64,000 bases of DNA from Candidatus Omnitrophota bacterium (GTDB taxonomy: Bacteria; Omnitrophota; Gorgyraeia; Gygaellales; Profunditerraquicolaceae). The position numbers were made by a program, and so were the translations under genes. The stretch covers positions 6,373 through 70,372 of the forward strand of contig JAHKAP010000052.1 in the NCBI GenBank assembly GCA_018825985.1, in the 5' to 3' direction. The notes under the pieces were generated by a model. It did no database searches. It was not told the origin of the DNA and worked only from the letters and a program-made list of their open reading frames with translations. This document shows, one piece after another, positions 3,344 to 21,386 of this stretch (position 1 is the first letter of the stretch; each line of letters begins with the position of its first letter).

Positions 3344-3971
3344 AAGGGCCAGGCAATTTTTTATGGCTGCAGTTTTTATGGCAGTATTTATTTTTGGCTG
3401 GATTTACCCTATTCTGGGATTTTTTATACCTCTATGCATGATCTTAGGGATAGGTATAGGGTTGTTTAAAGGCAGGAAATTCTGCGACTGGTATTGCCCC
3501 AGGGGAAGTTTTTATGACGCCTGGTTTAAGTCCTTGAGTCCGCAAAGAAAGATACCGGCCCTATTTAAGAATATCTATTTTCGTTTGGGGGTGTTATTAT
3601 TTCTGATGGCGGTAATGGTGGTTAACCTGTTTTACCGCTGGCCAAACCCTATTAATATAGGTATGTTTTTTGTGATTATGATGACTTCCACAACTGTTTT
3701 GGGTGTTGGTTTGGCGCTATTTTTCCATCAGCGCAGCTGGTGCTCGTTTTGCCCTGTGGGCACGATTGCCAATTTAGCCGGCAGGAATAAATTTAGCCTC
3801 ATGATAAATTCCCAGGATTGTAACGAATGTAAGGCCTGCGCTAAAGTTTGCCCCATACAGATCGAGCCTTATAAATTCAAAAAAACAGGCATCCGGGAAG
3901 TAAAAGATTTTGATTGCCTAAAATGCGGCACCTGCGTCGCAGCCTGCCCTAAAAAAGCCTTAAGTTTTTAA
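3330..3971 (+). CDS. Membrane-bound polyferredoxin-like protein with 4Fe-4S clusters
   Basis: Several transmembrane segments plus CxxCxxCxxxCP-type motifs (CNECKACAKVCP, CLKCGTCVAACP). Start is uncertain: ATG 3330 or 3363. The track ORF starts at 3261 inside trxB. Confidence 0.55.
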   Translation: MIKIRRARQFFMAAVFMAVFIFGWIYPILGFFIPLCMILGIGIGLFKGRKFCDWYCPRGSFYDAWFKSLSPQRKIPALFKNIYFRLGVLLFLMAVMVVNLFYRWPNPINIGMFFVIMMTSTTVLGVGLALFFHQRSWCSFCPVGTIANLAGRNKFSLMINSQDCNECKACAKVCPIQIEPYKFKKTGIREVKDFDCLKCGTCVAACPKKALSF

Positions 3972-3981
3972 AGGATAGATT

Positions 3982-4791
3982 ATGCTTAGGATACTCTTTA
4001 ATTTAGGCCCAATAAATATTTATTCTTACGGGTTAATGCTGGCCCTGGCATTTTTATCCGGGATGTATTTAATTGAAAAAAGAGCCCGGAAGCAGGGTCT
4101 GAATAAAAACAAAATTCTGGATCTGGTTTTTCTTATTCTTTTTTCTGCAATCCTGGGCGCGAGGGCATTATTCGTTATACTAAACTGGGATTATTACAGG
4201 TCTGACCTAATTGGTATTTTAAAGGTTTGGGAAGGCGGCCTGGTTTTCTACGGCGGATTGATCCTGGCTTTTTTTGCCAGCGTTTGGTTTTTAAAAAAGA
4301 ATAAACTATCTTTCTGGAAAACAGCGGATATTCTAAGCCCGGCATTAGCCTTGGGAGAAGTTTTTGGCAGGATCGGATGTTTTTTGAACGGGTGCTGTTA
4401 TGGTTTGATTTCCGAAAAGTGGGGGATTAGTTTTCCGGCGCGGGATAATCCTCCGGCTTTTTCCCAACAGGTCTTTGATGGCCTGATATCCCCGGCAGCA
4501 AGATGTTCATTGCCGGTGATCCCGACCCAGATCTATTCTGCCCTGGCTGGCCTGGCGATATTTTGTATACTCCTGGTTTTGGAGAAGAAGAAAAGTTTTG
4601 ACGGATTTTTATTCTGGGTTTTTATCCTGCTTTATTCCTTATTTAGGTTTGTAATCGAAAGCTTTCGTTATTACGAAAAAAACTTTTTTGTTCTCAATAA
4701 TCTGACCATATCCCAGGTCATCAGTATAGTTTTGGTTATAATTTCCCTGGTTTTTTTAGTCAAAGGCAAAAAGCAGGCAGAAAACAGGTGA
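3982..4791 (+). CDS. lgt: Prolipoprotein diacylglyceryl transferase
   Basis: Lgt signature regions (YGLMLALAFL, GGLVFYGG, GRIGCFLNGCCYG). Polytopic membrane protein. Confidence 0.85.
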   Translation: MLRILFNLGPINIYSYGLMLALAFLSGMYLIEKRARKQGLNKNKILDLVFLILFSAILGARALFVILNWDYYRSDLIGILKVWEGGLVFYGGLILAFFASVWFLKKNKLSFWKTADILSPALALGEVFGRIGCFLNGCCYGLISEKWGISFPARDNPPAFSQQVFDGLISPAARCSLPVIPTQIYSALAGLAIFCILLVLEKKKSFDGFLFWVFILLYSLFRFVIESFRYYEKNFFVLNNLTISQVISIVLVIISLVFLVKGKKQAENR

Positions 4792-6965
4792 AGATGAATA
4801 ATAAAATAGTGCTGGATATTTCCGGGATGCATTGCGCCTCCTGCGCTTTAAATATTGAACAGTCATTGAAAAAAGTTGCCGGCGTAATTGGTTCCCGGGT
4901 TAATTTCGCTTCAGAAAAGGCATATATTGAGTTTGATCCCGATAGGTTAAATGTCCAGGATTTTATCCGGATAGTTGAGCACAGCGGGTATAAGGCCGCT
5001 GTTCCCGGGACAATGGATGCGGAAAAAGAGTCCCGGGATAAAGAAGTTAAGGCTTTAAGGACGAAATTCATCATCGCTCTGATCCTTTCATCCATCCTGA
5101 TGGTTATATCAATGATAAAGCATACACAAATGGTTATGCCCCAGTTTGTCTTATCTACTGCGGTATTGGTCTGTGGCTATCAGTTTTTTATCCGGGGGAT
5201 AACCGTGGTTTTTAAAAACAAACAGGCGAATATGGATACCCTGGTAGCTTTGGGGGTAGGCAGCGCCTATTTTTATAGTTTATGGGCAAGTCTTTTTGGA
5301 GGCGCTAATCTTTATTATGAGTCAGCCGCTTTTTTGCTTACTTTTATTTTATTGGGTAAATACCTTGAAGCAGCGACCAAGAGAAAGACTTCTCAGGCTA
5401 TCAGGCGACTCTGGGGATTAAGGCCCAAAACAGCTTTGGTTATCCGTGAGGATAAGGAGCAAGAGGTTGCCGTGGAAGATTTAGTAATTGGGGATATTAT
5501 TATTGTTAAACCCGGCCAGAGCATACCGGTGGACGGTAAGGTTATGCACGGTTATTCCAGCGTAGATGAGTCAATGGTGACCGGAGAGAGCTTGCCAATA
5601 GAGAAGACCATCAATTCCATGGTTATCGGGGGGACAATAAATAAATCCGGCTCCTTTAAATTTCAGGCCGAAAAAATAGGTAAAGATACCATTCTGGCCC
5701 AGATCATTAAATTAGTGGAAGAGGCCCAGGGGTCTAAGGCCCCTATCCAGAAGCTGGCAGATAAAATTTCGGGTTTTTTTGTGCCGGCTGTTTTATTGAT
5801 AGGTGCGCTGACGTTTATGATCTGGTTTTTTCTGGGGAAAAACCCTGATTTGGCCTTAAGTAATTTTATCTCGGTATTAATCATCGCTTGCCCTTGCGCC
5901 TTGGGGCTGGCTACTCCTACGGCTGTGATGATGGGAACAGGTATAGGAGCGAACAACGGCATACTTATTAAGAACGCCTCCAGTCTTGAGATTACCCATA
6001 AATCCGGGGTGGTTGTTTTTGATAAAACCGGGACCCTGACCGAAGGAAGGCCGTCTTTGACCGATGTAGTATTAATGAGAGCTAAAGATAGACGGGAAGT
6101 TTTGAAATACGCGGCCATAGCCGAGAAACGTTCCGAGCATCCTTTGGCCGAGGCTATTATGGCTGAGGTCAAGAAAGAAGATTTAGATATTCCTGACCCG
6201 GATTTGTTTAATTCCCTGGCCGGGAAAGGGGTGATTGCCAGGTTTAATTCAGAGGTAATAATTTTAGGGAATCGGAGGTTGTTCGGCGAAAGAAAGATTG
6301 ATTATTCTAATTTAGAAGATAAATTAGCGGCATTAGAAGCCCAGGGTAAGACTGTGATGATGGCCGGGTATAAAAACGAAATTTTGGGGATACTGGCTTT
6401 CGCAGATACCTTAAAAGAAACAGCTAAATCTACGGTAGAGGTGTTAAATAAAATGGGCAAAGAAGTCATAATGATCAGCGGAGATAATCTGGCTACAGCC
6501 AAAGCGATCGCGAAGGCCGCAGGCATAGAAAGAGTTTTGGCTGAAGTTCTGCCGCAGGACAAGGTTCAAGAGATAAAGAATATTCAGGCTAAAGGTTCGA
6601 CGGTGGTTATGGTGGGAGACGGGATAAATGACGCTCCGGCATTAGCCCAGGCTGATGTAGGCATCGCAATAGGTGCGGGAACGGATATAGCCATGGAATC
6701 GGCGGATATTGTATTGATCAGGGATGATTTGTTGGGCGTGATCCTGGCTATTGACTTATCTCGGTATACCTTAAGAAAGATTCGGCAGAATCTTTTCTGG
6801 GCTTTCTTTTATAACAGCATAAGCATACCTGTAGCCGCAGGCCTGCTATATCCGTTTTTTAAAATCTTGCTTAATCCTGTAGTTGCCGCCCTGGCCATGA
6901 CTTTCAGCTCAGTTTCAGTTGTGGTTAATTCGCTTATGATGAAAAGATACTGTTTTAGGCGGTAG
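4788..6965 (+). CDS. copA: Heavy-metal (Cu+-type) translocating P1B-type ATPase
   Basis: N-terminal HMA domain GMHCASCA, transmembrane CPC motif, phosphorylation site DKTGTLT, GDGINDAP hinge. Confidence 0.85.
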   Translation: MKMNNKIVLDISGMHCASCALNIEQSLKKVAGVIGSRVNFASEKAYIEFDPDRLNVQDFIRIVEHSGYKAAVPGTMDAEKESRDKEVKALRTKFIIALILSSILMVISMIKHTQMVMPQFVLSTAVLVCGYQFFIRGITVVFKNKQANMDTLVALGVGSAYFYSLWASLFGGANLYYESAAFLLTFILLGKYLEAATKRKTSQAIRRLWGLRPKTALVIREDKEQEVAVEDLVIGDIIIVKPGQSIPVDGKVMHGYSSVDESMVTGESLPIEKTINSMVIGGTINKSGSFKFQAEKIGKDTILAQIIKLVEEAQGSKAPIQKLADKISGFFVPAVLLIGALTFMIWFFLGKNPDLALSNFISVLIIACPCALGLATPTAVMMGTGIGANNGILIKNASSLEITHKSGVVVFDKTGTLTEGRPSLTDVVLMRAKDRREVLKYAAIAEKRSEHPLAEAIMAEVKKEDLDIPDPDLFNSLAGKGVIARFNSEVIILGNRRLFGERKIDYSNLEDKLAALEAQGKTVMMAGYKNEILGILAFADTLKETAKSTVEVLNKMGKEVIMISGDNLATAKAIAKAAGIERVLAEVLPQDKVQEIKNIQAKGSTVVMVGDGINDAPALAQADVGIAIGAGTDIAMESADIVLIRDDLLGVILAIDLSRYTLRKIRQNLFWAFFYNSISIPVAAGLLYPFFKILLNPVVAALAMTFSSVSVVVNSLMMKRYCFRR

Positions 6966-8596: not shown

Positions 8597-9000
8597 TTAC
8601 TAAACGCATAGTTTTACATTTTCCCCAACGGCTGGTGGATAAGCCGATAGTTTACAAATTAATCAGGGATTTTAACCTGGAATTCAATATCCTCAAGGCT
8701 TATGTTACTCCTCAGGAGGAGGGGCTGATGGTTTTAGAGCTTAAAGGAAAAGACGAAGATTACCAGAAAGGGATAAAATATCTCGAGTCCTCAGGGGTAA
8801 AGATTCAGCCTTTAAGCGAGGACATCATTCGTAATGAAACTAAGTGCACCCATTGCGGCGTATGTGTTCCTATTTGTCCTACTCAGGCCCTGGCGGTTGA
8901 TCTGATCACCCGCAAGGTTAATTTCTACGACACAAAATGCATTGCCTGTGAAGTCTGCATCAAGGCTTGTCCCACCCACGCCATGGAAGTGCATTTCTAA
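8593..9000 (+). CDS. NIL-domain ferredoxin (2x[4Fe-4S]), MA1822-type partner of DUF39
   Basis: N-terminal NIL-like ~75 aa followed by [12 protein letters not shown] and [12 protein letters not shown]. 4-nt overlap with the upstream gene. Confidence 0.6.
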
Positions 9001-9006
9001 ATAAAA

Positions 9007-9843
9007 ATGCAAGATAAAATTCTGGATTTCCTAAAGTTGAAACAGGATATATCAGGTGCTCACCCGGAGAGATTATCCTCAGCAGGTGTCACCCATCAAT
9101 TGCATACTAAATTTATCGGGCGTAAGGTTTATTATTTCCAAAAAGTAGTTTCTACGATGGACGTGGCAATGCAGTGGGTTACTAAAGGCGCCTGCGAAGG
9201 GGCTTTAGTACTGGCTGAGACTCAGACTAAAGGCAGGGGAAGATTAGGCAGGTTTTGGTCATCGCCTAAATATAAAGGTTTATATTTTTCTTTGATTTTG
9301 AAACCTAAGATCCTGCCATCCGAGGCCTCTATATTTACTCTAATGGCGGCTGTATCTATATGTGAGGCAATTAAAGAGACGACTGAGTTGGAGCCTCAGA
9401 TAAAATGGCCAAATGATATCCTGATCCAGAATAAGAAAGTCGGCGGGATATTAACTGAATTAGACGCTGAAATGGATGAAGTGCGTTTTCTGGTTATTGG
9501 GATTGGCCTGAATGTGAATAATGATAAGGCCGGCATTGTTCTGGGCGCTACCTCTTTAAAGGAGCAGAAGAAAGAAGAAATAAACCGCTTAAGCCTGCTT
9601 CAGGAGATACTGCGCCGGATCGAGGATAATTATCTTGTATTCCAGAAAGAGGGCCCGAGGCCGGTCCTTAAGAAATGGCGCGATTTTAATATTACCCTGG
9701 GTAAAAGGGTAAAGGTAAATTTTCATAAAAAGCATATTGAAGGAGTGGCGGTGGATATCGATGTTGATGGGGCTTTATTGGTGAGGGATAATCCAGGTTT
9801 GATCCATAGGTTTACTGCCGGGGATGTTACCCTCTGCCGGTAA
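9007..9843 (+). CDS. birA: Biotin--[acetyl-CoA-carboxylase] ligase
   Basis: BirA catalytic motif QTKGRGRLGRFWSSP. The N-terminal region may carry an HTH. Confidence 0.8.
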   Translation: MQDKILDFLKLKQDISGAHPERLSSAGVTHQLHTKFIGRKVYYFQKVVSTMDVAMQWVTKGACEGALVLAETQTKGRGRLGRFWSSPKYKGLYFSLILKPKILPSEASIFTLMAAVSICEAIKETTELEPQIKWPNDILIQNKKVGGILTELDAEMDEVRFLVIGIGLNVNNDKAGIVLGATSLKEQKKEEINRLSLLQEILRRIEDNYLVFQKEGPRPVLKKWRDFNITLGKRVKVNFHKKHIEGVAVDIDVDGALLVRDNPGLIHRFTAGDVTLCR

Positions 9844-9921
9844 AAAGAAGATTGCCTGCGGCTGTGGATTAAGGTATAATCACCAGAAATCCGAACCTTG
9901 GATTTAGATAAAGGAGTTTAG

Positions 9922-10845
9922 ATGTTTAGAAAATTATTCAAGTTTGGCTTGGAAGGAAAGATTAAAGAATTAAAGAAAAAACGCGCTGCCGTCATCCTGG
10001 CTCATAATTACCAGCTGCCGGAAGTCCAGGACGTGGCTGATTACCGGGGGGATTCTTTGGAACTGAGTCGGATAGCCGCTAAAATTGATGCCAAGGTAAT
10101 TATTTTTTGCGGAGTGTATTTTATGGCTGAGACCGCGTCGATCCTTTGCCCTGATAAAAAGATCATTATGCCGGATACGTCTGCCGGATGCCCGATGGCA
10201 AACATGATCACGGCCGAAGACGTAAGAAACTTAAGAAAAGAGCATCCTCGGGCCATTGTTGTGGGCTACGTAAATACCTCGGCGGAAGTCAAGGCAGAGC
10301 TAGATGTCTGCTGCACTTCGACCAATGCCGTGGCAGTGGTCAATGCTTTTAAAGACGCCAAAGAGATAATTTTTATCCCGGATAAATACCTGGCGGATTA
10401 TGTTTCCAAAAAAACAGGCAGAAAACTTATCTCTTGGAATGGATTTTGTCCTACCCACGTGCAGATCCTGCCGGAAGATATAAAAAAAGAAAAAAAATTC
10501 CACCCTAAAGCTAAAGTTATAGTCCATCCTGAATGTCTGCCGGAGGTAGTAGCTATGGCGGATGCGGCATTATCCACCAGTAAGATGGGTCAATTCGCTA
10601 AAGAGACTTCTGCAAAAGAGATTATCGTGGGAACTGAAGTAGGAATAATTTATCGCTTAAAGCGGGATAATCTGGATAAGGAATTTTATCCGGCTTCTGA
10701 GCGGGCAGTCTGCCCGAATATGAAACGCACTACCCAGGAGAAGATTCTTTGGTCCTTGCAGGAGTTAAAAGAAGAGGTCAGGGTATCCGCAGACATAAGG
10801 TGTCGGGCGATCAAGGCCATTGATAAAATGCTTAAAATATTCTAA
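9922..10845 (+). CDS. nadA: Quinolinate synthase A
   Basis: NadA signatures (ILAHNYQ, FCGVYFMAE, cluster-ligating Cys residues). Confidence 0.85.
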   Translation: MFRKLFKFGLEGKIKELKKKRAAVILAHNYQLPEVQDVADYRGDSLELSRIAAKIDAKVIIFCGVYFMAETASILCPDKKIIMPDTSAGCPMANMITAEDVRNLRKEHPRAIVVGYVNTSAEVKAELDVCCTSTNAVAVVNAFKDAKEIIFIPDKYLADYVSKKTGRKLISWNGFCPTHVQILPEDIKKEKKFHPKAKVIVHPECLPEVVAMADAALSTSKMGQFAKETSAKEIIVGTEVGIIYRLKRDNLDKEFYPASERAVCPNMKRTTQEKILWSLQELKEEVRVSADIRCRAIKAIDKMLKIF

Positions 10846-11498: not shown

Positions 11499-12235
11499 TA
11501 AAATATATCATATTAGGCATAACCCAGGGGCTTACTGAATTCTTGCCGGTAAGTAGTTCTGGCCATCTGGTAATTATGCAGCGGATTTTAGGGCTGCCAG
11601 GTGAGGAATTGGTTTTATCGGTAGTCCTGCATTTAGGGACCGTATTGGCCATTTTGGTTTTTTTATATAAGGATATAATTAAATTATTCCGGAATTTTAA
11701 ATTAGTATTACTCATCCTTCTAGTTACGGTTATTACCGGCGCTATCGGAATATCAGGCAAGGATTTTTTCAAGAGCCTGTTTTCTGGGCCTGAGTACTCC
11801 GTATTGGGGCTATTAGCGACAGGGATAATCCTTATCTTGACCAAAAAGATCAGGGGCCATGGAAGAGAGGATTTAAATTTTAAAGATGCTTTGATTCTAG
11901 GTTTTACCCAGGCAATAGCAATAATTCCCGGGATCTCCCGTTCCGGGATTACCATATCTACGCTATTATTCCGCGGCTTAAGCCCGGATGTTGTTTTCCG
12001 TTTTTCATTCTTAGCCTCGATACCGGTGATTTTAGGCGCGGCCTTATTAGAGGTTAAAGATATATCCCTAAGTTTTCAGGGCCATGTCAGTAATCTCATT
12101 GCCGGATTTATTTTTAGTTTTCTTGCCGGTATAATTGCCCTTTTATTATTGCGTAGGATAATTTTAAACGCCAAATTCCATTATTTTGGATATTATTGTA
12201 TAATCGTTGCTTTATTAATATTATTATTTATATAA
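11495..12235 (+). CDS. uppP: Undecaprenyl-diphosphatase
   Basis: BacA/UppP motif GITQGLTEFLPVSSSGH. AGGAAG RBS. ATG 11495 overlaps the upstream stop (ATGA). The track ORF starts further upstream at 11471. Confidence 0.85.
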   Translation: MIKYIILGITQGLTEFLPVSSSGHLVIMQRILGLPGEELVLSVVLHLGTVLAILVFLYKDIIKLFRNFKLVLLILLVTVITGAIGISGKDFFKSLFSGPEYSVLGLLATGIILILTKKIRGHGREDLNFKDALILGFTQAIAIIPGISRSGITISTLLFRGLSPDVVFRFSFLASIPVILGAALLEVKDISLSFQGHVSNLIAGFIFSFLAGIIALLLLRRIILNAKFHYFGYYCIIVALLILLFI

Positions 12236-12236
12236 G

Positions 12237-13136
12237 ATGAGCCTGTTAGTATTAGGGACAGTTGCCTTAGATACCGTAAAAACCCCGTTTGGACTGCGTA
12301 AGAAGATGTTGGGCGGTTCAGCTGTGCATTTTTCTATGTCGGCCCGTCTTTTTACCGATATACATTTAGTGGCGGTGGTGGGTGAAGATTTTCCCGCGCA
12401 GCATTTGAAATTTTTAAAAGGTAAAGGGATTGCTTTTGACTCTCTTGTTCAAAGCGCCGGCAATACTTTTCATTGGGAGGGTAAATACGAAGGAGATTTA
12501 AATAGCGCTGTTACGTTGAATACCCATTTAGGAGTGCTTTCGGATTTTAGTCCTAAAATCAGCCTCAAAGACAGGAAGATCGGGAACATATTTTTAGCCA
12601 ATATTGACCCGGATACCCAAATGAATTTATTGGAGGGGATGGATTCCCCTCGGTTCGTGGCGGTGGATAGCATGAACTATTGGATAGATACTAAGCGCGC
12701 TTCTTTGCTTCGCCTGCTAAAGAAGGTGGATATCTATGTGGCTAATGATGCCGAGGCCAGGAGTTTATCCGGCGAGACTAACTTGATCAAAGCTGCCAAG
12801 AGATTGCGTTCTTTAGGCCCGAAGACAGTCTTAATTAAAAAAGGCGAGCACGGGGTTTTGCTTTATAATGACAAATTTATTTTTAGCCTGCCTGCTTATC
12901 CGCTTAGCAGGGTTATTGATCCTACCGGGGCCGGCGATACGTTTGCCGGCGGATTTATGGGGTATCTTGCTAGGTCTGGAAAAAAAGATAAAGAGTCTTT
13001 TAAAAAAGCTATTTGTTACGGGACTGTTGCCGCTTCTTTTAATGTTGAGGGTTTTGGGGTGGAGAGAACCTCCAGGATTAATTTTGAACAATTGAAAAAA
13101 AGATTCAAGGAATTTAGGGAGATAGTTATATTCTAA
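12237..13136 (+). CDS. PfkB-family carbohydrate/nucleoside kinase
   Basis: Ribokinase-family anion-hole motif DPTGAGDTFAGGF. Substrate cannot be assigned from sequence. Confidence 0.65.
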   Translation: MSLLVLGTVALDTVKTPFGLRKKMLGGSAVHFSMSARLFTDIHLVAVVGEDFPAQHLKFLKGKGIAFDSLVQSAGNTFHWEGKYEGDLNSAVTLNTHLGVLSDFSPKISLKDRKIGNIFLANIDPDTQMNLLEGMDSPRFVAVDSMNYWIDTKRASLLRLLKKVDIYVANDAEARSLSGETNLIKAAKRLRSLGPKTVLIKKGEHGVLLYNDKFIFSLPAYPLSRVIDPTGAGDTFAGGFMGYLARSGKKDKESFKKAICYGTVAASFNVEGFGVERTSRINFEQLKKRFKEFREIVIF

Positions 13137-14860: not shown

Positions 14861-15382
14861 ATGAGGAGATTTGGTTTTATAATATTAATTTTAGCGGTGG
14901 TTGTGGTCTTGGCTGGTTGCGGCAAGAAACAGGAGGCCCTGGAACAGATGCAGCAGCCTATGGCGCCCGAGGATTTAAGCAGGCTTAAGACTGAGGCCCA
15001 GGTTGCCACGGAGATGAAGCCGGAGGCTATAATGTTTCAATCCCAAAAGGCGGCTTCTGCGGGTTTACAGCCTCAAACAGCGGTAGCGCCGCAATCAGAG
15101 GTAAGGCTGGAACCGTTACCCCCGGCAGGACCTTATAGGCCTACAATTCACGAGATCCAGACAGCCTTAAAGAACTCTGGTTATTATATAGGTAAGGTTG
15201 ACGGTAAGGTTGGTCCGATGACCAAAAAGGCGATTGAAGAATTTCAGAAAGCCAATAATCTTAAGGTTGACGGTAAGGTTGGTCCTAAGACCTGGTCAGT
15301 ATTAAACCAGAACCTTAATCAAGCTTCAGCTGTAACAGCGGAAACTCTATCAGCTTCTTCTGCATCAAGCCAGAAAAGATAA
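14861..15382 (+). CDS. Lipoprotein with tandem peptidoglycan-binding (PG_binding_1-like) repeats
   Basis: Lipobox LAGC. Two repeats of the form GKVDGKVGP.TKKAIEEFQKANNLKVDG. Confidence 0.6.
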   Translation: MRRFGFIILILAVVVVLAGCGKKQEALEQMQQPMAPEDLSRLKTEAQVATEMKPEAIMFQSQKAASAGLQPQTAVAPQSEVRLEPLPPAGPYRPTIHEIQTALKNSGYYIGKVDGKVGPMTKKAIEEFQKANNLKVDGKVGPKTWSVLNQNLNQASAVTAETLSASSASSQKR

Positions 15383-15389
15383 GCTGGTC

Positions 15390-15418
15390 TTGAAAAATAT
15401 ATAGCCTTATGCTATTCT
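15390..15418 (+). promoter_or_regulatory. Sigma70-like promoter (TTGAAA-17-TATTCT) driving the structured RNA
   Basis: -35 at 15390-15395, -10 at 15413-15418. The predicted TSS (~15424) coincides with the first base of the RNA's closing stem. Confidence 0.4.
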
Positions 15419-15423
15419 TTAAT

Positions 15424-15620
15424 AGCCGATAAAGGCAAACTCTGGGAAACCAGGGGGCCCCTGCGGATTTATCGCAGGGCCCACTTAAGCCAAACGTGTA
15501 AACAGTCTGGCGTAGGCGGGGCAAAGCCACAGGCCTAATCCTGCCGATAGTAGAGGTGGGGATGGCGGCTGGGTTGCCGAAAGGGGCGAGGATATTTTAA
15601 TAGACCCGCCTTTATCGGCT
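15424..15620 (+). ncRNA. Candidate ~197-nt structured RNA of unassigned class (GEMM/c-di-GMP-I-like signatures, or a novel sRNA)
   Basis: 5' AGCCGAUAAAGGC pairs with 3' GCCUUUAUCGGCU (13 bp). Internal CUGG-GAAA-CCAG GNRA hairpin preceded by GCAAAC. 11-bp GC hairpin GGGGGCCCCUGCG/CGCAGGGCCC. GGGGCAAAGCC-ACA-GGCCUAA string. Own promoter and downstream terminator. No ORF. Confidence 0.35.
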
Positions 15621-15644: not shown

Positions 15645-15677
15645 AATCCCAACATTTTTGTTGGGATTTTCTATTTA
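15645..15677 (+). terminator. Intrinsic terminator-like hairpin (AATCCCAACA/TGTTGGGATT, U-rich tail)
   Basis: 10-bp perfect stem, 4-nt loop, then TTCTATTTA. Confidence 0.4.
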
Positions 15678-15697
15678 CGGGTGGTATAATAGCCACT

Positions 15698-16921
15698 ATG
15701 ATTGTTTTCCCTCAGGGTTTTTTATGGGGCGCGGCCACTTCTGCCCATCAAGTCGAAGGCGAAAATAGAAATAATGATTGGTGGAAGTGGGAGAGGTCCG
15801 CAAATTTGAAAGAAACCTCCGGGAGCGCCTGCCGGCATTACCAGCTTTTTAAAGAAGACTTTGATCTGGCCCGGTCCCTCAATCATAATTGCCATCGTTT
15901 TTCAATCGAATGGAGCCGTATATTTCCTTCCAGCGGCGCAATTTCTCGCGAAGAGCTTACGCATTATCGGAATGTTATCCAGGCGTTAAAAGAACGGGGC
16001 CTGGAGCCTATAGTTAGTCTCCATCATTTTACCAATCCTCTTTGGTTCAGTAAATTAGGCGGCTGGGAGAATCCGGGATCTCAAGGGCACTACTTAAATT
16101 ATGTCCGCAGGGTAGTGGAAGAATTCGCCGATTTGGTTAAATATTGGGTGACTATTAATGAGCCTATGGTTTACGTTTATTATTCTTATGTTATCGGCGC
16201 CTGGCCCCCGCAGGAAAAATCTTTTTTAAAAGCCAGAAGAGTTACCGCTAATCTTATTTCCGCGCATACCCAAGCTTATAAATTGATCCAGGTAATTTAT
16301 AGAAATAAGGGATTGCCTAAGCCTGAGGTTGGCATCGCCAAGAATATGCAGGCTTTTGTTCCCTGCAAAAATAACTTTAGGAACAGATTGGCGGTTTATC
16401 TGCGGGATAAATCATTTAACTTCGATTTTCTAAACAAGTTGGCAAAGTCTAAAACCATGGATTTCATCGGGGTAAACTATTATACCCGTAGCCTGGTTGA
16501 GACTTCCAGTTGGTCGCTGAATAACGTATTGACCCGGATCTGCCAGGACAACCATAGTTCTCTTCTTAAGAATTCCTTAGGTTGGGATATTTACCCTGAA
16601 GGATTAGTCGACCTTTTATTAAGGCTCAAAATTTACGATCTTCCGGTGATAATCCTGGAGAATGGAATTTGTACTATGGATGATGCTCTAAGATGGAATT
16701 TTATTAATCAGCACCTGAAAAGTATAGGCATTGCCTTAGCCAAAGGAGTAAGGATTTCAGGTTATATCTATTGGTCCCTTTTGGATAATTTTGAATGGGA
16801 CAAAGGTTTTGGTCCCCGCTTCGGTTTAATCGGAGTAGATTATTCTGATTTCAGGCGCACGGTCAGAGAGAGCGCAAGAATTTTTTCCCTGGTTTGCAAA
16901 ACCGGGATACTTGAGCAATGA
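15698..16921 (+). CDS. Glycoside hydrolase family 1 beta-glucosidase
   Basis: GH1 N-terminus FPQGFLWGAATSAHQVEG, acid/base region TINEP, nucleophile region ILENG. Extended -10 TGgTATAAT at 15682-15690 lies only 7 nt from the ATG, with no SD, so the mRNA is probably leaderless. Confidence 0.8.
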   Translation: MIVFPQGFLWGAATSAHQVEGENRNNDWWKWERSANLKETSGSACRHYQLFKEDFDLARSLNHNCHRFSIEWSRIFPSSGAISREELTHYRNVIQALKERGLEPIVSLHHFTNPLWFSKLGGWENPGSQGHYLNYVRRVVEEFADLVKYWVTINEPMVYVYYSYVIGAWPPQEKSFLKARRVTANLISAHTQAYKLIQVIYRNKGLPKPEVGIAKNMQAFVPCKNNFRNRLAVYLRDKSFNFDFLNKLAKSKTMDFIGVNYYTRSLVETSSWSLNNVLTRICQDNHSSLLKNSLGWDIYPEGLVDLLLRLKIYDLPVIILENGICTMDDALRWNFINQHLKSIGIALAKGVRISGYIYWSLLDNFEWDKGFGPRFGLIGVDYSDFRRTVRESARIFSLVCKTGILEQ

Positions 16922-18927
16922 AGACATTTAAAAAAGAACTGATTTTAAAAGAGATACCCCTGTTCGTAGGCCTATCCACTAAAGAGCTCATTCTTATTAA
17001 AGAAAGTTCGAGTTTAGTTGAATACCGTAAGGGGCAGGTTATATACAAAGAGGGAACCAATCCTTCGGCGTTTTATTGCATTGTTTTTGGCAGGGTAGTG
17101 ATCTCGGCCTTGGATTTCCAGGGGAAAGAAACAATACTTGAATATCTTCACCGGGGTAAATATTTCGGGATAATTTCTTTGCTTACCGGAGAACCCCATT
17201 CTGTCAGCGCCAAGGCTATTAATGACTGCCTACTTTTAGTTATAAACAAAGAAGAATTTGATTTCCTTCTCAAAAAAATATCCTCTTTGGCCATTGACTT
17301 GAGCCGGACTTTATCCCGCAGGCTAAAGCGCAAAGATATCCATGCTAAGAAGATATTTGAAAGCACGATCATTTCCGTCTTTAGTTCTTATCCCAGGGCA
17401 GGAAAGACTATCTACGCGGCAAACTTAGGCTTCGGCCTGAAAAAAGAAACCCATAAATCGGTAGTTATACTGGATATCTGCCCGAAAATTAAGACCCACA
17501 GCATGCCCAGAAGGTTGGGAATGGAATCCGGGTATAAAGTTTTTGACCTTTCCAACAAAGCTGCGGATATGAACAAAGTAAAAGAATTTATTTTTAAGGA
17601 TAGATTTGATATCGATATCATATTTTTTAATTACCGGCCTAAGGATAAATCTTATGTCAGGATGCTTTTGGGTATTTTAAGTTCATTGGTCAATGATTAC
17701 CATTATATAGTTTTAGACCTTCCTTCTTATATGGATGATTCAATTTTCGGTATTTTAAACCAATCAGACATAATTCACTTATTGACCAGTCCGGATCTGG
17801 CCGACTTAAAGAGAACTCGTAGGCTCATCCAGAAGATGAAAAACTATTTTTTCTTTTCCCCTTCCAAGATAAAAGTCATTATAAATGAATATAAATCAGG
17901 AAGATTAAGCTATCCTGAAGAAATGAAATTACTGGGTAGCAATATTTTTGCTGTCCTGCCCCGCATAGAATACAAGGAACCGGCAAGGTTATTTCTGGAT
18001 AAGCCTGCCTGCGAGTATGCCAAGACTATCCGCAGGATATCCCGCCAGGAAGGTGATTGTATGGTGGGATTAGCTTTGGGGATCGGCGTGGCCTATGGAT
18101 TCTGTCATATCGGAGTATTAAAAGTAATTGAAGAGGAAAAGATCCCCATAGATGTTATTACCGGCTCGAGCATGGGCGCGTTTGTTGCCGGATTATGGGC
18201 CTTGGGTAAATCAAGCGCAGAAATCTTGGATATTGCCCGGGAATTAAAGGCCCCTAGGTGGATATTCGGCATGTTGGATTTTACATTCCCCCGTTTGGGT
18301 TTTATTAAGGGTAACCGGCTTTATAGTTTAATCAAGAAATATTTTCAGGAAAAGACGTTTTATGATTTAAAAATTCCCTTGAAGATTATTGCCAGCGATA
18401 TTAAAATGAAGGAACCTAGGGTATTGGATAAAGGGCTTTTGGCAGATGCGATCATGGCCAGCTGTTCCATGCCCGGGGTATTTAAGCCCTTCCGGATAAA
18501 GGAAGATGCTTTATATGACGGCGGGGTGGTCCATCCTTTGCCGACCGAGCCTTTATTTGAGATGGGGGTGAAAAAGATAATCGCGGTTAATGTTACTCCA
18601 TCGCGCCAGGACATACTTAAACAGTATGAGAAAATAAAGGAAATGGTCATTAACAGCAAGGGTGCGGATAAAAAGCAGTGGTTTAATCTGGGTGAATATT
18701 TTAAAGAGAAGTTTAAGTCCAATATTTTGGATATTATTTTCAGTAGTTTTGAAATATTGCAATCGACAGTGGCGGAACAGGAAGGTAATCTTGCGGATAT
18801 AGTTCTACATCCGGATACTTCGGGGATGCATTGGTTAGAATTGCACAAGGCTGAAGAGTTCGCTAAAAGAGGCGAAGAGGAAACCCGTAGGTGTCTAGAT
18901 AAGGTCTGGGAGGTAATTAATGAATAG
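16918..18927 (+). CDS. Three-domain protein: cyclic-nucleotide-binding (CAP/CNB) domain + degenerate ParA/MinD-like domain + patatin-like phospholipase
   Basis: aa 1-140: CNB fold (GE.SLL.G.P..ATA-like pattern around GKYFGIISLLTGEPHSVSAKAI). aa ~150-380: MinD/ParA-like with degenerate Walker A (SSYPRAGKT) and YHYIVLDLPS. aa ~385-669: patatin motifs GxGxxG (GLALGIG), GxSxG (GSSMGA), catalytic DGG (YDGGVV). ATGA overlap with the beta-glucosidase stop. Confidence 0.75.
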   Translation: MKTFKKELILKEIPLFVGLSTKELILIKESSSLVEYRKGQVIYKEGTNPSAFYCIVFGRVVISALDFQGKETILEYLHRGKYFGIISLLTGEPHSVSAKAINDCLLLVINKEEFDFLLKKISSLAIDLSRTLSRRLKRKDIHAKKIFESTIISVFSSYPRAGKTIYAANLGFGLKKETHKSVVILDICPKIKTHSMPRRLGMESGYKVFDLSNKAADMNKVKEFIFKDRFDIDIIFFNYRPKDKSYVRMLLGILSSLVNDYHYIVLDLPSYMDDSIFGILNQSDIIHLLTSPDLADLKRTRRLIQKMKNYFFFSPSKIKVIINEYKSGRLSYPEEMKLLGSNIFAVLPRIEYKEPARLFLDKPACEYAKTIRRISRQEGDCMVGLALGIGVAYGFCHIGVLKVIEEEKIPIDVITGSSMGAFVAGLWALGKSSAEILDIARELKAPRWIFGMLDFTFPRLGFIKGNRLYSLIKKYFQEKTFYDLKIPLKIIASDIKMKEPRVLDKGLLADAIMASCSMPGVFKPFRIKEDALYDGGVVHPLPTEPLFEMGVKKIIAVNVTPSRQDILKQYEKIKEMVINSKGADKKQWFNLGEYFKEKFKSNILDIIFSSFEILQSTVAEQEGNLADIVLHPDTSGMHWLELHKAEEFAKRGEEETRRCLDKVWEVINE

Positions 18928-18938
18928 GGGAGGGGATT

Positions 18939-19406
18939 ATGATCAAGTTTAAAGTTAAAAGTTTAAAGTCTAAAATCAGTCTAGTAAGCGCTTTGAGCCT
19001 TTTGTTTTTTGCCGGGGGATGTTCTTCTTTAGTAAACTATCCTAAAAGATTCTTGGGGCTTTCGACAGTTGAACTAGAGAGGCAGCGCGCTGAAGCGATC
19101 AGTATGGTTTTTAGCTTGGATTATCCGGTTTGTTACGCTAAAACGCAGGATATATTAAAGGAAATCGGGGTTTATATTTACGCTAAGGATAATAAAAAGC
19201 GGATGATCGCTATTTATTTATCAAGCGAGGATACTACACCAGTGGGTTTGTTTTTTAAAGAGATTGCGGTCGGTAAGACAGAAATAGAAGTTTCCTCCCC
19301 GAGTATTTATGGCAAAGAGATTATTGCCAAAAGGGTCTTTACGATGCTGGAAGGATTGCCTGATCCAATGAAGAAGATCGAAAAAGGCAATGAGCAAAAT
19401 AAATAG
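18939..19406 (+). CDS. Lipoprotein, unknown function
   Basis: Signal peptide with lipobox FFAGGCSS. No recognisable catalytic motif. Confidence 0.45.
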   Translation: MIKFKVKSLKSKISLVSALSLLFFAGGCSSLVNYPKRFLGLSTVELERQRAEAISMVFSLDYPVCYAKTQDILKEIGVYIYAKDNKKRMIAIYLSSEDTTPVGLFFKEIAVGKTEIEVSSPSIYGKEIIAKRVFTMLEGLPDPMKKIEKGNEQNK

Positions 19407-19426: not shown

Positions 19427-19816
19427 ATGAAAGATTGTTTTATTGAAAAGAAGATATACTATCACGATACAGATTGCGGCGGAGTGGTCTATTACGCTAA
19501 TTACCTGAAATTCTTTGAGGAGGGCAGGGCTGAGTATTGTCTGGATAAAGGAGTGGCATTAAAGGATTTAGCAAATAGGCATACTTATTTTGTGGTGGCT
19601 CATACTGAAATCAATTATAAGGCTCCGGCCCGCTATCAGGATAAGATTAGTATTTCTACCGGGATTGAAAAGATTGGAAATGCCTCGATAAATTTTATCC
19701 AGAAGATCGCCAGAGATGATATTGTTTTGGTTGAGTCAAAGACTACCTGGGTTTGTGTGGGGAAAGATTTCAAGCCTAAACCTGTGCCTGAAGAGGCTAT
19801 AAGAGCGTTGGTGTAG
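19427..19816 (+). CDS. Hotdog-fold acyl-CoA thioesterase (YbgC/4HBT family)
   Basis: YYHDTDCGGVVYYANYLKFFEEGR is characteristic of YbgC-type thioesterases. Confidence 0.7.
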   Translation: MKDCFIEKKIYYHDTDCGGVVYYANYLKFFEEGRAEYCLDKGVALKDLANRHTYFVVAHTEINYKAPARYQDKISISTGIEKIGNASINFIQKIARDDIVLVESKTTWVCVGKDFKPKPVPEEAIRALV

Positions 19817-19817
19817 C

Positions 19818-21386
19818 GTGGGAAAAATCAGAAAGAGAGATAGCTGGGGGTCGCGCCTAGGTATTATTATGGCTGTGGCAGGTTCCGCTATCGGTCTAGG
19901 TAATTTCTTAAGGTTTCCGGCCAAGGCAGCCTGTTACGGCGGAGGAGCGTTTATGATCCCCTATTTTGTTTCTCTGCTTCTTTTAGGGATCCCGCTGATG
20001 TGGATCGAATGGACATTGGGAAGGTACGGCGGAGGATACGGCCATGGCAGCGCCCCGGGGATATTCCATAGTATCTGGAATAAAAACCGCTTCATCAAAT
20101 ATTTTGGGATTATCGGTATCTTTGGTCCCTTGGTCATATTAATTTATTATACCTATATAGAATCATGGACCTTGGCTTATAGTTTTTACGCCTTGACAGG
20201 TAAATACAGTCAGATAGCCAGCCAGTCTGGTATGCAGAGTTTCTTGCGTGGATTCCAGGGTTTGGAGAATAACCAGTATTTTCATGGTTTAGGGGCGGCC
20301 TACTTCTTTTTCCTCGTTACCTTTATTCTTAATATCACGGTAATTTATTATGGGATAAAAGGCGGCATAGAAAGATTATGTAAATTTGCTATGCCGCTTT
20401 TATTTATCTGCGGGTTGATGCTTTTGGCCAGGGTTGTAACTTTAGGCGCTCCCGATCCGGCTAAACCTGACTGGAACATTTTGAATGGATTCGGTTTTTT
20501 ATGGAACCCTGACTTTTCAGCTTTAAAATCAGCCAGGGTCTGGCTGGAAGCTGCCGGACAGATATTCTTTACTTTAAGCGTTGGTATAGGAGTGATACTT
20601 ACTTATGCCAGTTATTTATCTAAAGGAGATGATGTGGTTCTTTCCGGACTCACCGCGGCTACCACTAATGAAATAGCTGAGGTTATAATAGGCGGAAGCA
20701 TTATAATACCTGCGGCTTTTGTTTTTTTCGGTCCTGCAGATATACGGGCTATTGCTCAATCCGGGGTGTTTAATTTAGGGTTCGTGACCACTCCTTTAGT
20801 TTTAAATAAGTTACCTCTGCCCCAGATAATGGGTTTTATTTGGTTCTCGCTTTTGTTTTTGGCTGGGGTAACTTCTTCGGTTTCCCTGGCTCAGCCGGCG
20901 GTAGCTTTTTTAGAGGACGAGTTTAATTTAAATCGCAAAAAAGCGGTTTTTATATTTGCCGCGGCCACATTTATACTTTGCCAGCCGGCAATATTTTTCT
21001 TGGGTAAAGGCGTAGTTAACGAATTGGATTTCTGGGGCGGGACATTCTTTCTGGTTTTATTCGCGGCTATCGAGATCATACTTTTTGTCTGGGTTTTTGG
21101 GATGGAGAAGGCCTGGGACGAAATACATAAAGGCGCGGATATGTCTATCCCCAGGGTTTATAAATTTATAATCAAGTATATCACCCCTTTATTTATTTTC
21201 TTTATCTTGGGGATGTGGTTTTGGCAGGAGTGGCTGCCGGTGATTTTGATGAAAGGGGTATCGATTCAGGAGCGTCCCTTTATTTTGTGGACCAGGATTT
21301 GCCTGTTGGTGATATTTCTGATTCTGGCTCTAATGGTCAAATCCGCGTGGAGAAAAAGAAAGATGCAATTGGAGATGATTAAATGA
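19818..21386 (+). CDS. Neurotransmitter:sodium symporter (NSS/SNF) family transporter
   Basis: NSS N-terminal signature (WGSRLGIIMAVAGSAIGLGNFLRFP), ~11-12 TM helices. GTG start. Confidence 0.8.
   Translation: MGKIRKRDSWGSRLGIIMAVAGSAIGLGNFLRFPAKAACYGGGAFMIPYFVSLLLLGIPLMWIEWTLGRYGGGYGHGSAPGIFHSIWNKNRFIKYFGIIGIFGPLVILIYYTYIESWTLAYSFYALTGKYSQIASQSGMQSFLRGFQGLENNQYFHGLGAAYFFFLVTFILNITVIYYGIKGGIERLCKFAMPLLFICGLMLLARVVTLGAPDPAKPDWNILNGFGFLWNPDFSALKSARVWLEAAGQIFFTLSVGIGVILTYASYLSKGDDVVLSGLTAATTNEIAEVIIGGSIIIPAAFVFFGPADIRAIAQSGVFNLGFVTTPLVLNKLPLPQIMGFIWFSLLFLAGVTSSVSLAQPAVAFLEDEFNLNRKKAVFIFAAATFILCQPAIFFLGKGVVNELDFWGGTFFLVLFAAIEIILFVWVFGMEKAWDEIHKGADMSIPRVYKFIIKYITPLFIFFILGMWFWQEWLPVILMKGVSIQERPFILWTRICLLVIFLILALMVKSAWRKRKMQLEMIK

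Follow-up and report, generated by a model that had tools for sequence, protein, structure and literature searches.

We analysed a 64-kb window of DNA (64,000 nucleotides of contig JAHKAP010000052.1, Candidatus Omnitrophota bacterium, assembly GCA_018825985.1; all positions below are numbered within this window) that carries an operon built around a three-domain lipase. The lipase is a 669-amino-acid (aa) protein encoded by an open reading frame (ORF) at 16918..18927, taken from the ORF list and assigned by Pfam. A first-pass annotation, made from the sequence alone, had described it as a CAP-type cyclic-nucleotide-binding (CNB) domain followed by a ParA/MinD-like domain and a patatin phospholipase domain, and Pfam and NCBIfam profiles recover all three. 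The gene lies on the forward strand, as do its domains, its two operon partners and the leader elements described below. Directly upstream is a gene for a 407-aa beta-glucosidase of glycoside hydrolase family 1 (GH1; 15698..16921; Pfam PF00232, E 3.7e-84), which is of a short, BGPh-like form. The beta-glucosidase stop and the lipase start overlap in an ATGA (16918..16921), as had been annotated and as can be read directly from the sequence. The gene for a 155-aa lipoprotein (18939..19406), with the lipobox AGGC and a DUF3568/Flpp3-like character, is probably the third gene of the operon.

The operon and its lipase family

A scan of one genome per species found a relative of the lipase in 208 species genomes, from which 80 loci (L001–L080) were kept for synteny. 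Searches with the window proteins (tblastn) revealed a fixed gene order in these loci: a peptidoglycan-binding (PG_binding_1) lipoprotein, the leader, GH1, the lipase, the 155-aa lipoprotein and frequently, further along, an SNF-type transporter. Of the 80 loci, 69 have GH1; among the 11 others, five are cut by contig ends and six are truly without the gene. The spacing from the GH1 stop to the lipase start falls between −20 and +5 nucleotides (nt) in about 63 of the 69 loci, so the coupling of the two genes is conserved. The 155-aa lipoprotein can be found in 74 of the 80 loci.

The catalytic half of the lipase is an RssA/PlpD-type patatin domain (residues 382–669; 18061..18927), identified with Pfam, NCBIfam and Protein Data Bank (PDB) profiles. 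Pfam Patatin (PF01734) matches residues 386–546 (E 6.7e-30), as expected of a patatin-like phospholipase, and the Ser418/Asp534 dyad is intact, with GxSxG at G416-S418-G420 (18163–18177) and DGG at D534-G536 (18517–18525). Motif conservation was followed in 22 close orthologs (the close clade) and in 42 diverse relatives down to 25% identity. Both catalytic motifs, which the first-pass annotation had called intact, proved invariant across the 42 relatives as GxSxG and DG[GA], and the oxyanion-loop glycines G384, G390 and G394 are conserved in the same set. Invariance down to 25% identity clearly indicates, at the level of sequence, that selection has acted on the lipase chemistry.

A word-indexed protein search with the 669-aa lipase returned 946 relatives. 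The best 120 of these are each about 670 aa long, cover the full query at 61–66% identity and derive from Candidatus Omnitrophota/Omnitrophica metagenome-assembled genomes (MAGs); the only names they carry are “patatin-like phospholipase family protein” and “NTE family protein”. An exhaustive HMMER search of 50%-identity representatives recovered more than 100 full-length, single-stretch relatives of about 640–700 aa, down to 25–30% identity, and their named members are mostly Omnitrophota, with one from Nitrospirota and one from Candidatus Lindowbacteria. The 80 kept loci are labelled Omnitrophota almost throughout, and the few with other MAG labels are probably mis-assigned. With more than 100 clusters at 50% identity sharing its layout, and with relatives encoded in 208 species genomes, nearly all of them Omnitrophota, the three-domain architecture is not a one-off but, judged from these sequences, a large unstudied family that is not peculiar to the window locus. 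Literature searches on Omnitrophota with patatin, bacterial patatin with CNB, and Omnitrophota with c-di-GMP (cyclic di-GMP) returned no description of the lipase family.

Some members of the family bear N-terminal extensions before the CNB domain, of about 390 residues in P0249 (1031 aa) and about 150 residues in P0253 (827 aa); P0249 is listed by one source as [quoted passage not shown]. In locus L081, which holds a distant member at 30% identity, three PilZ-domain genes (3729–4109, 6062–6457 and 11926–12369) occur within 8 kb of the lipase relative, whose neighbours also include ETF alpha/beta genes and a SAM hydroxide adenosyltransferase-like gene.

The remaining neighbours of the window operon vary in their constancy. 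The upstream PG_binding_1 lipoprotein gene (14861–15382) is conserved in 66 of the 80 loci. The 155-aa lipoprotein shows a KA1/Flpp3 helix-grip-type fold; it can be compared with DUF3568, Francisella Flpp3 and KA1, and the window protein itself gave no Pfam match at E 0.1. Directly 3' of its gene lies a 4HBT-type acyl thioesterase gene (19427–19816) that is adjacent in only five of the 80 loci, followed by a gene for an SNF-family sodium symporter (19818–21386) that is syntenic in 47 of the 80 loci at 74–86% identity. In locus L067, the place of GH1 (9439–9994) is taken by two ORFs, one of 67 aa that contains an H-box-like LAHEIKNSL and one for a stand-alone CheY-like receiver of 126 aa, which ends 6 nt before the lipase gene. 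A receiver-like coding sequence was also seen, by eye, upstream of GH1 in locus L020. The receiver genes at these two loci hint at phosphorelay input in some lineages.

The leader and its c-di-GMP-I riboswitch

The GEMM-like RNA that had been suspected upstream of the operon is a c-di-GMP-I riboswitch aptamer (15424..15581), which scores 41 bits against Rfam RF01051, above the gathering score of 35, and carries an insertion of about 60 nt between helix P2 of the aptamer and the GCAAAGCC strand (15461–15520). The orthologous aptamers score 48–82 bits with the Rfam model. A covariance model of our own, built from seven aptamers, gave the window 90.5 bits and found 30 orthologous matches at the same position. 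Across the alignment 97.5% of the cells are paired, 115 of them by compensatory change, while slid controls reach 25–50% paired, a pattern that agrees in sequence with the RF01051 fold.

The riboswitch is present in 30 of the 69 loci with enough upstream sequence (~43%), always on the same strand and immediately upstream of the operon, where it sits between the PG_binding_1 lipoprotein gene and the hairpin/promoter unit described below. It remains before the lipase gene in loci where GH1 is missing (L011, L034, L067). In a distance tree of the lipases, riboswitch-bearing loci are scattered over most subclades, with one whole subclade lacking it. In L001, the closest relative (87% identical lipase), the aptamer and anti-aptamer have been precisely lost (8681–8780), with a P1-like promoter, the hairpin and promoter P2 kept. 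The scattered distribution and the loss in L001 make the riboswitch look like an ancestral element that has been lost repeatedly, and its association with the operon is real and old.

The leader contains further conserved elements. A consensus scan located promoter P1 (TTGAAA-17-TATTCT with TG; 15390..15418), to which a function is assigned by conservation: CTTGAAAA-N17-TATACT occurs 6–8 nt before the aptamer in 29 of the 30 riboswitch-bearing loci. Downstream of the aptamer, the anti-aptamer strand GCCUUUAUCGGCU (15608..15620) is perfectly complementary to AGCCGAUAAAGGC, the 5' strand of the aptamer. It occurs in 30 of 31 leaders, frequently followed by a U-tract, and the minimum-free-energy fold pairs it with that 5' strand. 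A terminator scan then identified a hairpin, AAUCCCAACA-UUUU-UGUUGGGAUU, followed by a U-tract (15645..15668), as a putative intrinsic terminator. It is unique in the window, and its sequence is conserved whether or not the riboswitch is present, with compensatory variants and with insertions in the loop. The 3' arm of this terminator doubles as the −35 element of a second predicted promoter, P2 (TTGGGA-18-TGgTATAAT; 15661..15690), which is the best promoter match in the region (10/12) and sits 7 nt before the GH1 ATG. TGnTATAAT occurs 6–10 nt before the ATG in nearly all loci, including before the lipase gene where GH1 is absent, and this arrangement was found only once in the window. The hairpin/P2 unit is also retained in riboswitch-less loci. 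At a distance of only 6–10 nt from the ATG, P2 implies an mRNA that would be leaderless or near-leaderless.

We also considered whether the CCCAAC...GTTGGG palindrome of this hairpin could be a protein operator. This is unlikely, since the arms accept insertions of 50–90 nt between them and show compensatory changes. Three loci, though, keep the 3' arm and not its partner, as would suit a −35 element.

How the riboswitch relates to the operon is less certain. A terminator and a second promoter stand between it and GH1, which leaves the coupling unproven, and the constrained folding of five leaders yields no ON/OFF logic: the anti-aptamer can pair with either the 5' strand or the 3' tail, and the terminator hairpin forms in silico in both riboswitch states. 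c-di-GMP may control the operon through read-through or through interference with P2. The strongest rival to such control is that the riboswitch does not regulate the operon at all, being a stand-alone, self-terminated RNA or part of the upstream unit, with P2 alone driving the three genes. The conserved promoter of its own, the U-tract that follows the anti-aptamer in many loci, the terminator common to both folds, the persistence of the leaderless P2 in riboswitch-less loci and the state of L001 all agree with that explanation. It is set against the placement of the aptamer directly upstream and on the same strand in species from most subclades, as would be expected of a cis-regulator, and against its retention before the lipase gene in loci without GH1; moreover, read-through across P2 could also act by interference. 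We regard a non-regulating riboswitch as quite possible, though somewhat short of an even chance.

The window aptamer passes the Rfam threshold and so can be placed with c-di-GMP-I (GEMM-I) riboswitches such as Vc2, for which the orphan merRNA of Bdellovibrio offers a further comparison. The aptamers of the clade differ from known GEMM-I RNAs in their large lineage-specific insertions and in their platform, which comprises an own promoter, an anti-aptamer, a terminator and a second promoter. The insertions occur at three places, namely the P2 branch of the aptamer, the P3 loop and the junction before GCAAAGCC (L063, L025, L061 and others). The residue preceding CGCAAAGCC is A in some aptamers and G in others, and the best match of the L050 aptamer is the c-di-GMP-I-GGC variant. 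A second c-di-GMP-I aptamer in L075 (15462–15554) lies upstream of a gene for a 166-aa secreted-looking protein, so this riboswitch class is also present at another locus in the same genome.

Domains of the lipase and its GH1 partner

The middle module of the lipase has the MinD/ParA fold (residues 148–378; 17359..18051; assigned by profile searches). Pfam gives a sub-threshold CbiA/MinD/ParA match (residues 161–350, E 1.3e-3) and NCBIfam a MinD match (residues 151–333, E 7e-8). A profile similarity to ParA/MinD proteins had been set beforehand as the test of the first-pass assignment. A profile built from 18 diverse members matches the ParA-family structure 3EA0 over its whole length (E 4.6e-24) and also matches MinD (~1e-15), Soj, FlhG, FleN and BY-kinases, which establishes the homology to MinD/ParA. 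The degenerate Walker A motif that had been annotated, SSYPRAGKT, is present at residues 156–164 (17383–17409). Compared with SGKGGVGKT of MinD, it keeps GKT, has Tyr158 in place of the signature lysine and has bulky residues in place of both glycines of KGG. Elsewhere in the module, the equivalent of MinD Asp38 is kept as Asp186 and the Walker B aspartate as Asp267, while the water-activating Asp40 corresponds to Cys188. The module is thus without the deviant Walker A motif xKGGxGK[ST], with its signature lysine, and without the switch I catalytic aspartate. The wider family (42 relatives) ranges from a near-canonical KGVGKT/S to P-loops with no Gly-Lys-Thr at all. Given these motif losses and the variation across the family, the module looks, in sequence, like a MinD/ParA ATPase in various stages of decay to a pseudo-ATPase.

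This module differs from MinD, FlhG, FleN, ParA and BcsQ in being fused inside an enzyme, not free-standing, and in lacking the signature lysine and catalytic aspartate; its P-loop, unlike that of the MinD/ParA ATPases, varies from member to member of the family. In 3EA0, an atypical protein of the ParA family from Chlorobium tepidum, KGGDGGS stands in place of KGGxGKT. As an alternative to decay, the module could be a working nucleotide switch, in which ATP-driven dimerisation and/or membrane association turns the lipase on as in MinD/FlhG. The invariance of GKT, Asp186 and Asp267 within the close clade suggests that nucleotide binding may persist. However, Tyr158 replaces the lysine on which the ATP sandwich dimer depends, and Cys188 stands at the position of the water-activating aspartate; the KGG glycines have given way to bulky residues, and the P-loop is not conserved family-wide, whereas the lipase motifs are. 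An ATP-driven switch is doubtful in our view.

The GH1 protein carries both family 1 catalytic residues, the acid/base in NEP (TINEP) and the nucleophile in ENG (ILENG), and about 60 of 65 orthologs retain both. Its best solved relative is 1VFF, the beta-glycosidase BGPh of P. horikoshii (E 9e-100, 338 bits, 41% identity end to end), while typical natural GH1 enzymes match at about 224 bits. The two proteins share the short format (~405–423 aa) and the catalytic motifs, and by sequence GH1 is a member of the short BGPh-like subgroup and not a generic GH1 enzyme. BGPh is membrane-associated, through a hydrophobic mound with a basic ring, and prefers long-alkyl beta-glucosides and hydrophobic aglycones (PMC4687101). 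It is, however, an enzyme of a hyperthermophilic archaeon, and a substrate preference in common with the window GH1 is suggested by sequence relatedness. No obvious N-terminal signal sequence was seen on inspection of GH1 or the lipase. The GH1 ortholog in L007 (8818–9987) shows an in-frame stop in its tblastn translation and could be a pseudogene or an assembly error.

GH1 could also be functionally unrelated to the lipase, an ordinary cytoplasmic enzyme of cellobiose/beta-glucoside catabolism that merely shares its promoter. It does match the generic BGL model TIGR03356, although its 296 bits fall below the equivalog cut-off of 478.5, and both the six close loci and distant family members have the lipase without GH1. 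On the other side, the overlapping or nearly overlapping stop and start have been kept across about 63 species, the protein belongs to the BGPh-like subgroup, and no sugar transporter or kinase is consistently adjacent in the 80 loci. We consider an unrelated GH1 unlikely.

The N-terminal domain of the lipase has a CNB fold of the CAP/PKA-R type (residues 1–140; 16918..17337), assigned by Pfam, AlphaFold and structural matches. Pfam cNMP_binding (PF00027) matches residues 34–119 above its gathering score (E 1.6e-21), and the AlphaFold model of the domain (pLDDT 70–92) superposes on the domains of CRP, PKA-R, PKG and HCN. In the canonical CNB cassette, the glutamate of FGE holds the ribose 2'-OH and the arginine of R[ST]A holds the cyclic phosphate. 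The window cassette (residues 83–98; 17164–17211) reads FGIISLLTGEPHSVSA and is not canonical, with Ile85 in place of this glutamate and His94 in place of this arginine. All 22 close orthologs have His94, and conservation of Ile85 among them is at least 90%. The 42 diverse relatives mostly read FGE...PHS.T, with the glutamate kept and the arginine replaced, so that His94 is the majority state; a canonical ...PRSATV cassette appears only in the most divergent of them. The ancestor of the domain was probably a true sensor of cyclic mononucleotides (cNMP). That a pocket without either anchor is still strongly conserved points to another ligand or to a role in structure alone.

The CNB domain was annotated first as part of a cAMP/cGMP-activated phospholipase, a bacterial NTE-/CapV-like effector in which a bound cyclic mononucleotide would switch the lipase on. 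The fold is as annotated; the cassette is not of the canonical cNMP-binding kind. With both anchors replaced, in the close clade as in the window, and with histidine at the second anchor in most of the family, cAMP/cGMP sensing by this domain is unlikely. Neither a GGDEF nor a class III cyclase motif was found in any window ORF of at least 90 aa by a regular-expression scan, which is not a profile search, and no cyclase is among the conserved neighbours, in agreement with what had been noted at first. A cNMP-gated lipase is, overall, very unlikely. The idea of a second-messenger-responsive unit survives as a possibility in the c-di-GMP-I riboswitch upstream, with the coupling left unproven by the intervening terminator and P2, and is unlikely for cAMP and cGMP.

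The protein was also compared with known lipases. The RssA model of NCBIfam aligns with the catalytic half end to end (residues 382–667, E 2.3e-29), but the score of 102.5 bits is far below the cut-off of 272 of the RssA equivalog NF007623; among solved structures PlpD is nearest (E 9e-26). Neither CNB nor MinD-like domains are present in E. coli RssA (YchK) or P. aeruginosa PlpD. The oxyanion loop of RssA-type enzymes has the motif GxGxxRG, and the arginine of this loop corresponds to Tyr393 in the window protein. NTE (PNPLA6, Swiss-cheese in Drosophila) resembles the window protein in placing CNB-fold domains N-terminal to a patatin Ser-Asp lipase, and JGI names the homologs “NTE family”. 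NTE is anchored by an N-terminal transmembrane segment and combines three CNB domains with a NEST-type patatin domain; it has no MinD/ParA module. The window protein instead has one CNB domain with a decayed cassette, a MinD-fold insert of about 230 residues and a catalytic domain of the RssA/PlpD type. Its translation starts with no obvious hydrophobic segment, and it departs from the NTE/PNPLA6 architecture. The role of the CNB sites in the lipase function of NTE is itself debated (PMC12710771). CapV, the cGAMP-activated patatin effector of CBASS, is likewise a patatin lipase, and nucleotide control has been suggested for both proteins, but CapV has no CNB domain. It resembles the window lipase only very weakly, with a PDB E of 4.5e-5 for a CapV-type lipase and an NCBIfam score of 19 bits where the cut-off is 200.

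A role in phage defence or abortive infection, as a CBASS- or Pycsar-type effector, is scarcely credible and was rejected, in line with the initial doubt about a defence role: the PADLOC matches (phospholipase effectors, E 4.5e-10; in the CNB region TIR, E 1.6e-6, and PycTIR, E 1.2e-4), like the NCBIfam ones, are weak and at domain level only, no model of such an effector family is matched, no cyclase or CD-NTase is adjacent, and the full-length protein persists at ~60% identity in a fixed housekeeping neighbourhood across 80 species.

On these comparisons the nearest concept is the NTE/PNPLA6 family, with an RssA/PlpD-like catalytic half, and the protein reads as a regulated patatin lipase into which a MinD-derived module has been inserted, encoded in an operon typical of the phylum. 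All components are of known kinds and nothing here overturns current knowledge. As a whole, the first-pass annotation was sound in its observations, and its interpretation is only partly supported.

Proposed function and significance

We propose that this is a housekeeping operon of Omnitrophota with which the cell turns over or remodels its own membrane (glyco)lipids, a reading to which we would give an even chance. It builds on three co-oriented, tightly spaced genes that are syntenic across dozens of species, and on the conservation of both the lipase dyad and the GH1 catalytic glutamates. GH1, like BGPh, would act at the membrane on amphiphilic glucosides and take off their beta-glucosyl head group, the patatin domain would release acyl chains, and the lipoprotein could act on the periplasmic or outer side. 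The two N-terminal domains would regulate or position the lipase. The CNB-fold domain could sense a different small ligand or only transmit conformation through its C-helix, and the MinD/ParA-fold domain could be a scaffold for dimerisation or membrane positioning with little or no ATPase activity. P2 would drive a leaderless mRNA in which the lipase is translationally coupled to GH1, and in the ~43% of species that have it, including that of the window, the separately promoted riboswitch may add c-di-GMP-dependent read-through or interference.

Several observations weigh against this proposal. None of the three proteins has a known substrate, and 41% identity to BGPh leaves the specificity of GH1 unfixed. 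The pairing with GH1 is confined to the close clade: six close loci are without GH1, one of them with a response regulator instead, and the distant members in L081 and L083 (30–39% identity range) lie in unrelated contexts without GH1 and with no common partner. With GKT, Asp186 and Asp267 invariant in the close clade, nucleotide binding may persist, and the terminator that forms in both riboswitch states leaves c-di-GMP control of the operon unproven. The AlphaFold model can be used for the CNB and MinD-like parts but has a pLDDT below 50 in the patatin half, so that inter-domain packing and active-site geometry are not readable from it.

A bolder version of the proposal would make the operon a c-di-GMP-linked envelope-lipid switch specific to Omnitrophota. 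Here the riboswitch would gate or interfere with P2, the His/Ile pocket of the CNB domain would sense a ligand other than a cyclic mononucleotide, and the MinD-derived pseudo-ATPase would position or dimerise the lipase, which together with a glycolipid-specific GH1 would strip glucosyl-lipids, for example during host attachment. We see this as a long shot; if true, it would represent a new kind of lipase regulation by a cytoskeletal-type positioning module.

The Omnitrophota are an abundant, uncultured group of bacteria, often of ultra-small size, and to our knowledge their envelope biology is essentially unknown. For this phylum, our analysis defines a conserved, apparently housekeeping three-gene module together with a protein family, and it offers concrete substrate hypotheses in the form of glucosyl-lipids. 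In 30 species a c-di-GMP riboswitch stands in an unusual arrangement that combines a promoter of its own with a terminator and a further, leaderless promoter. The lipase itself appears to be an enzyme fused to two regulatory folds that have been caught mid-decay, and its family could serve as a natural series in which to follow the re-purposing of CNB and MinD/ParA domains once their nucleotide ligands are lost.

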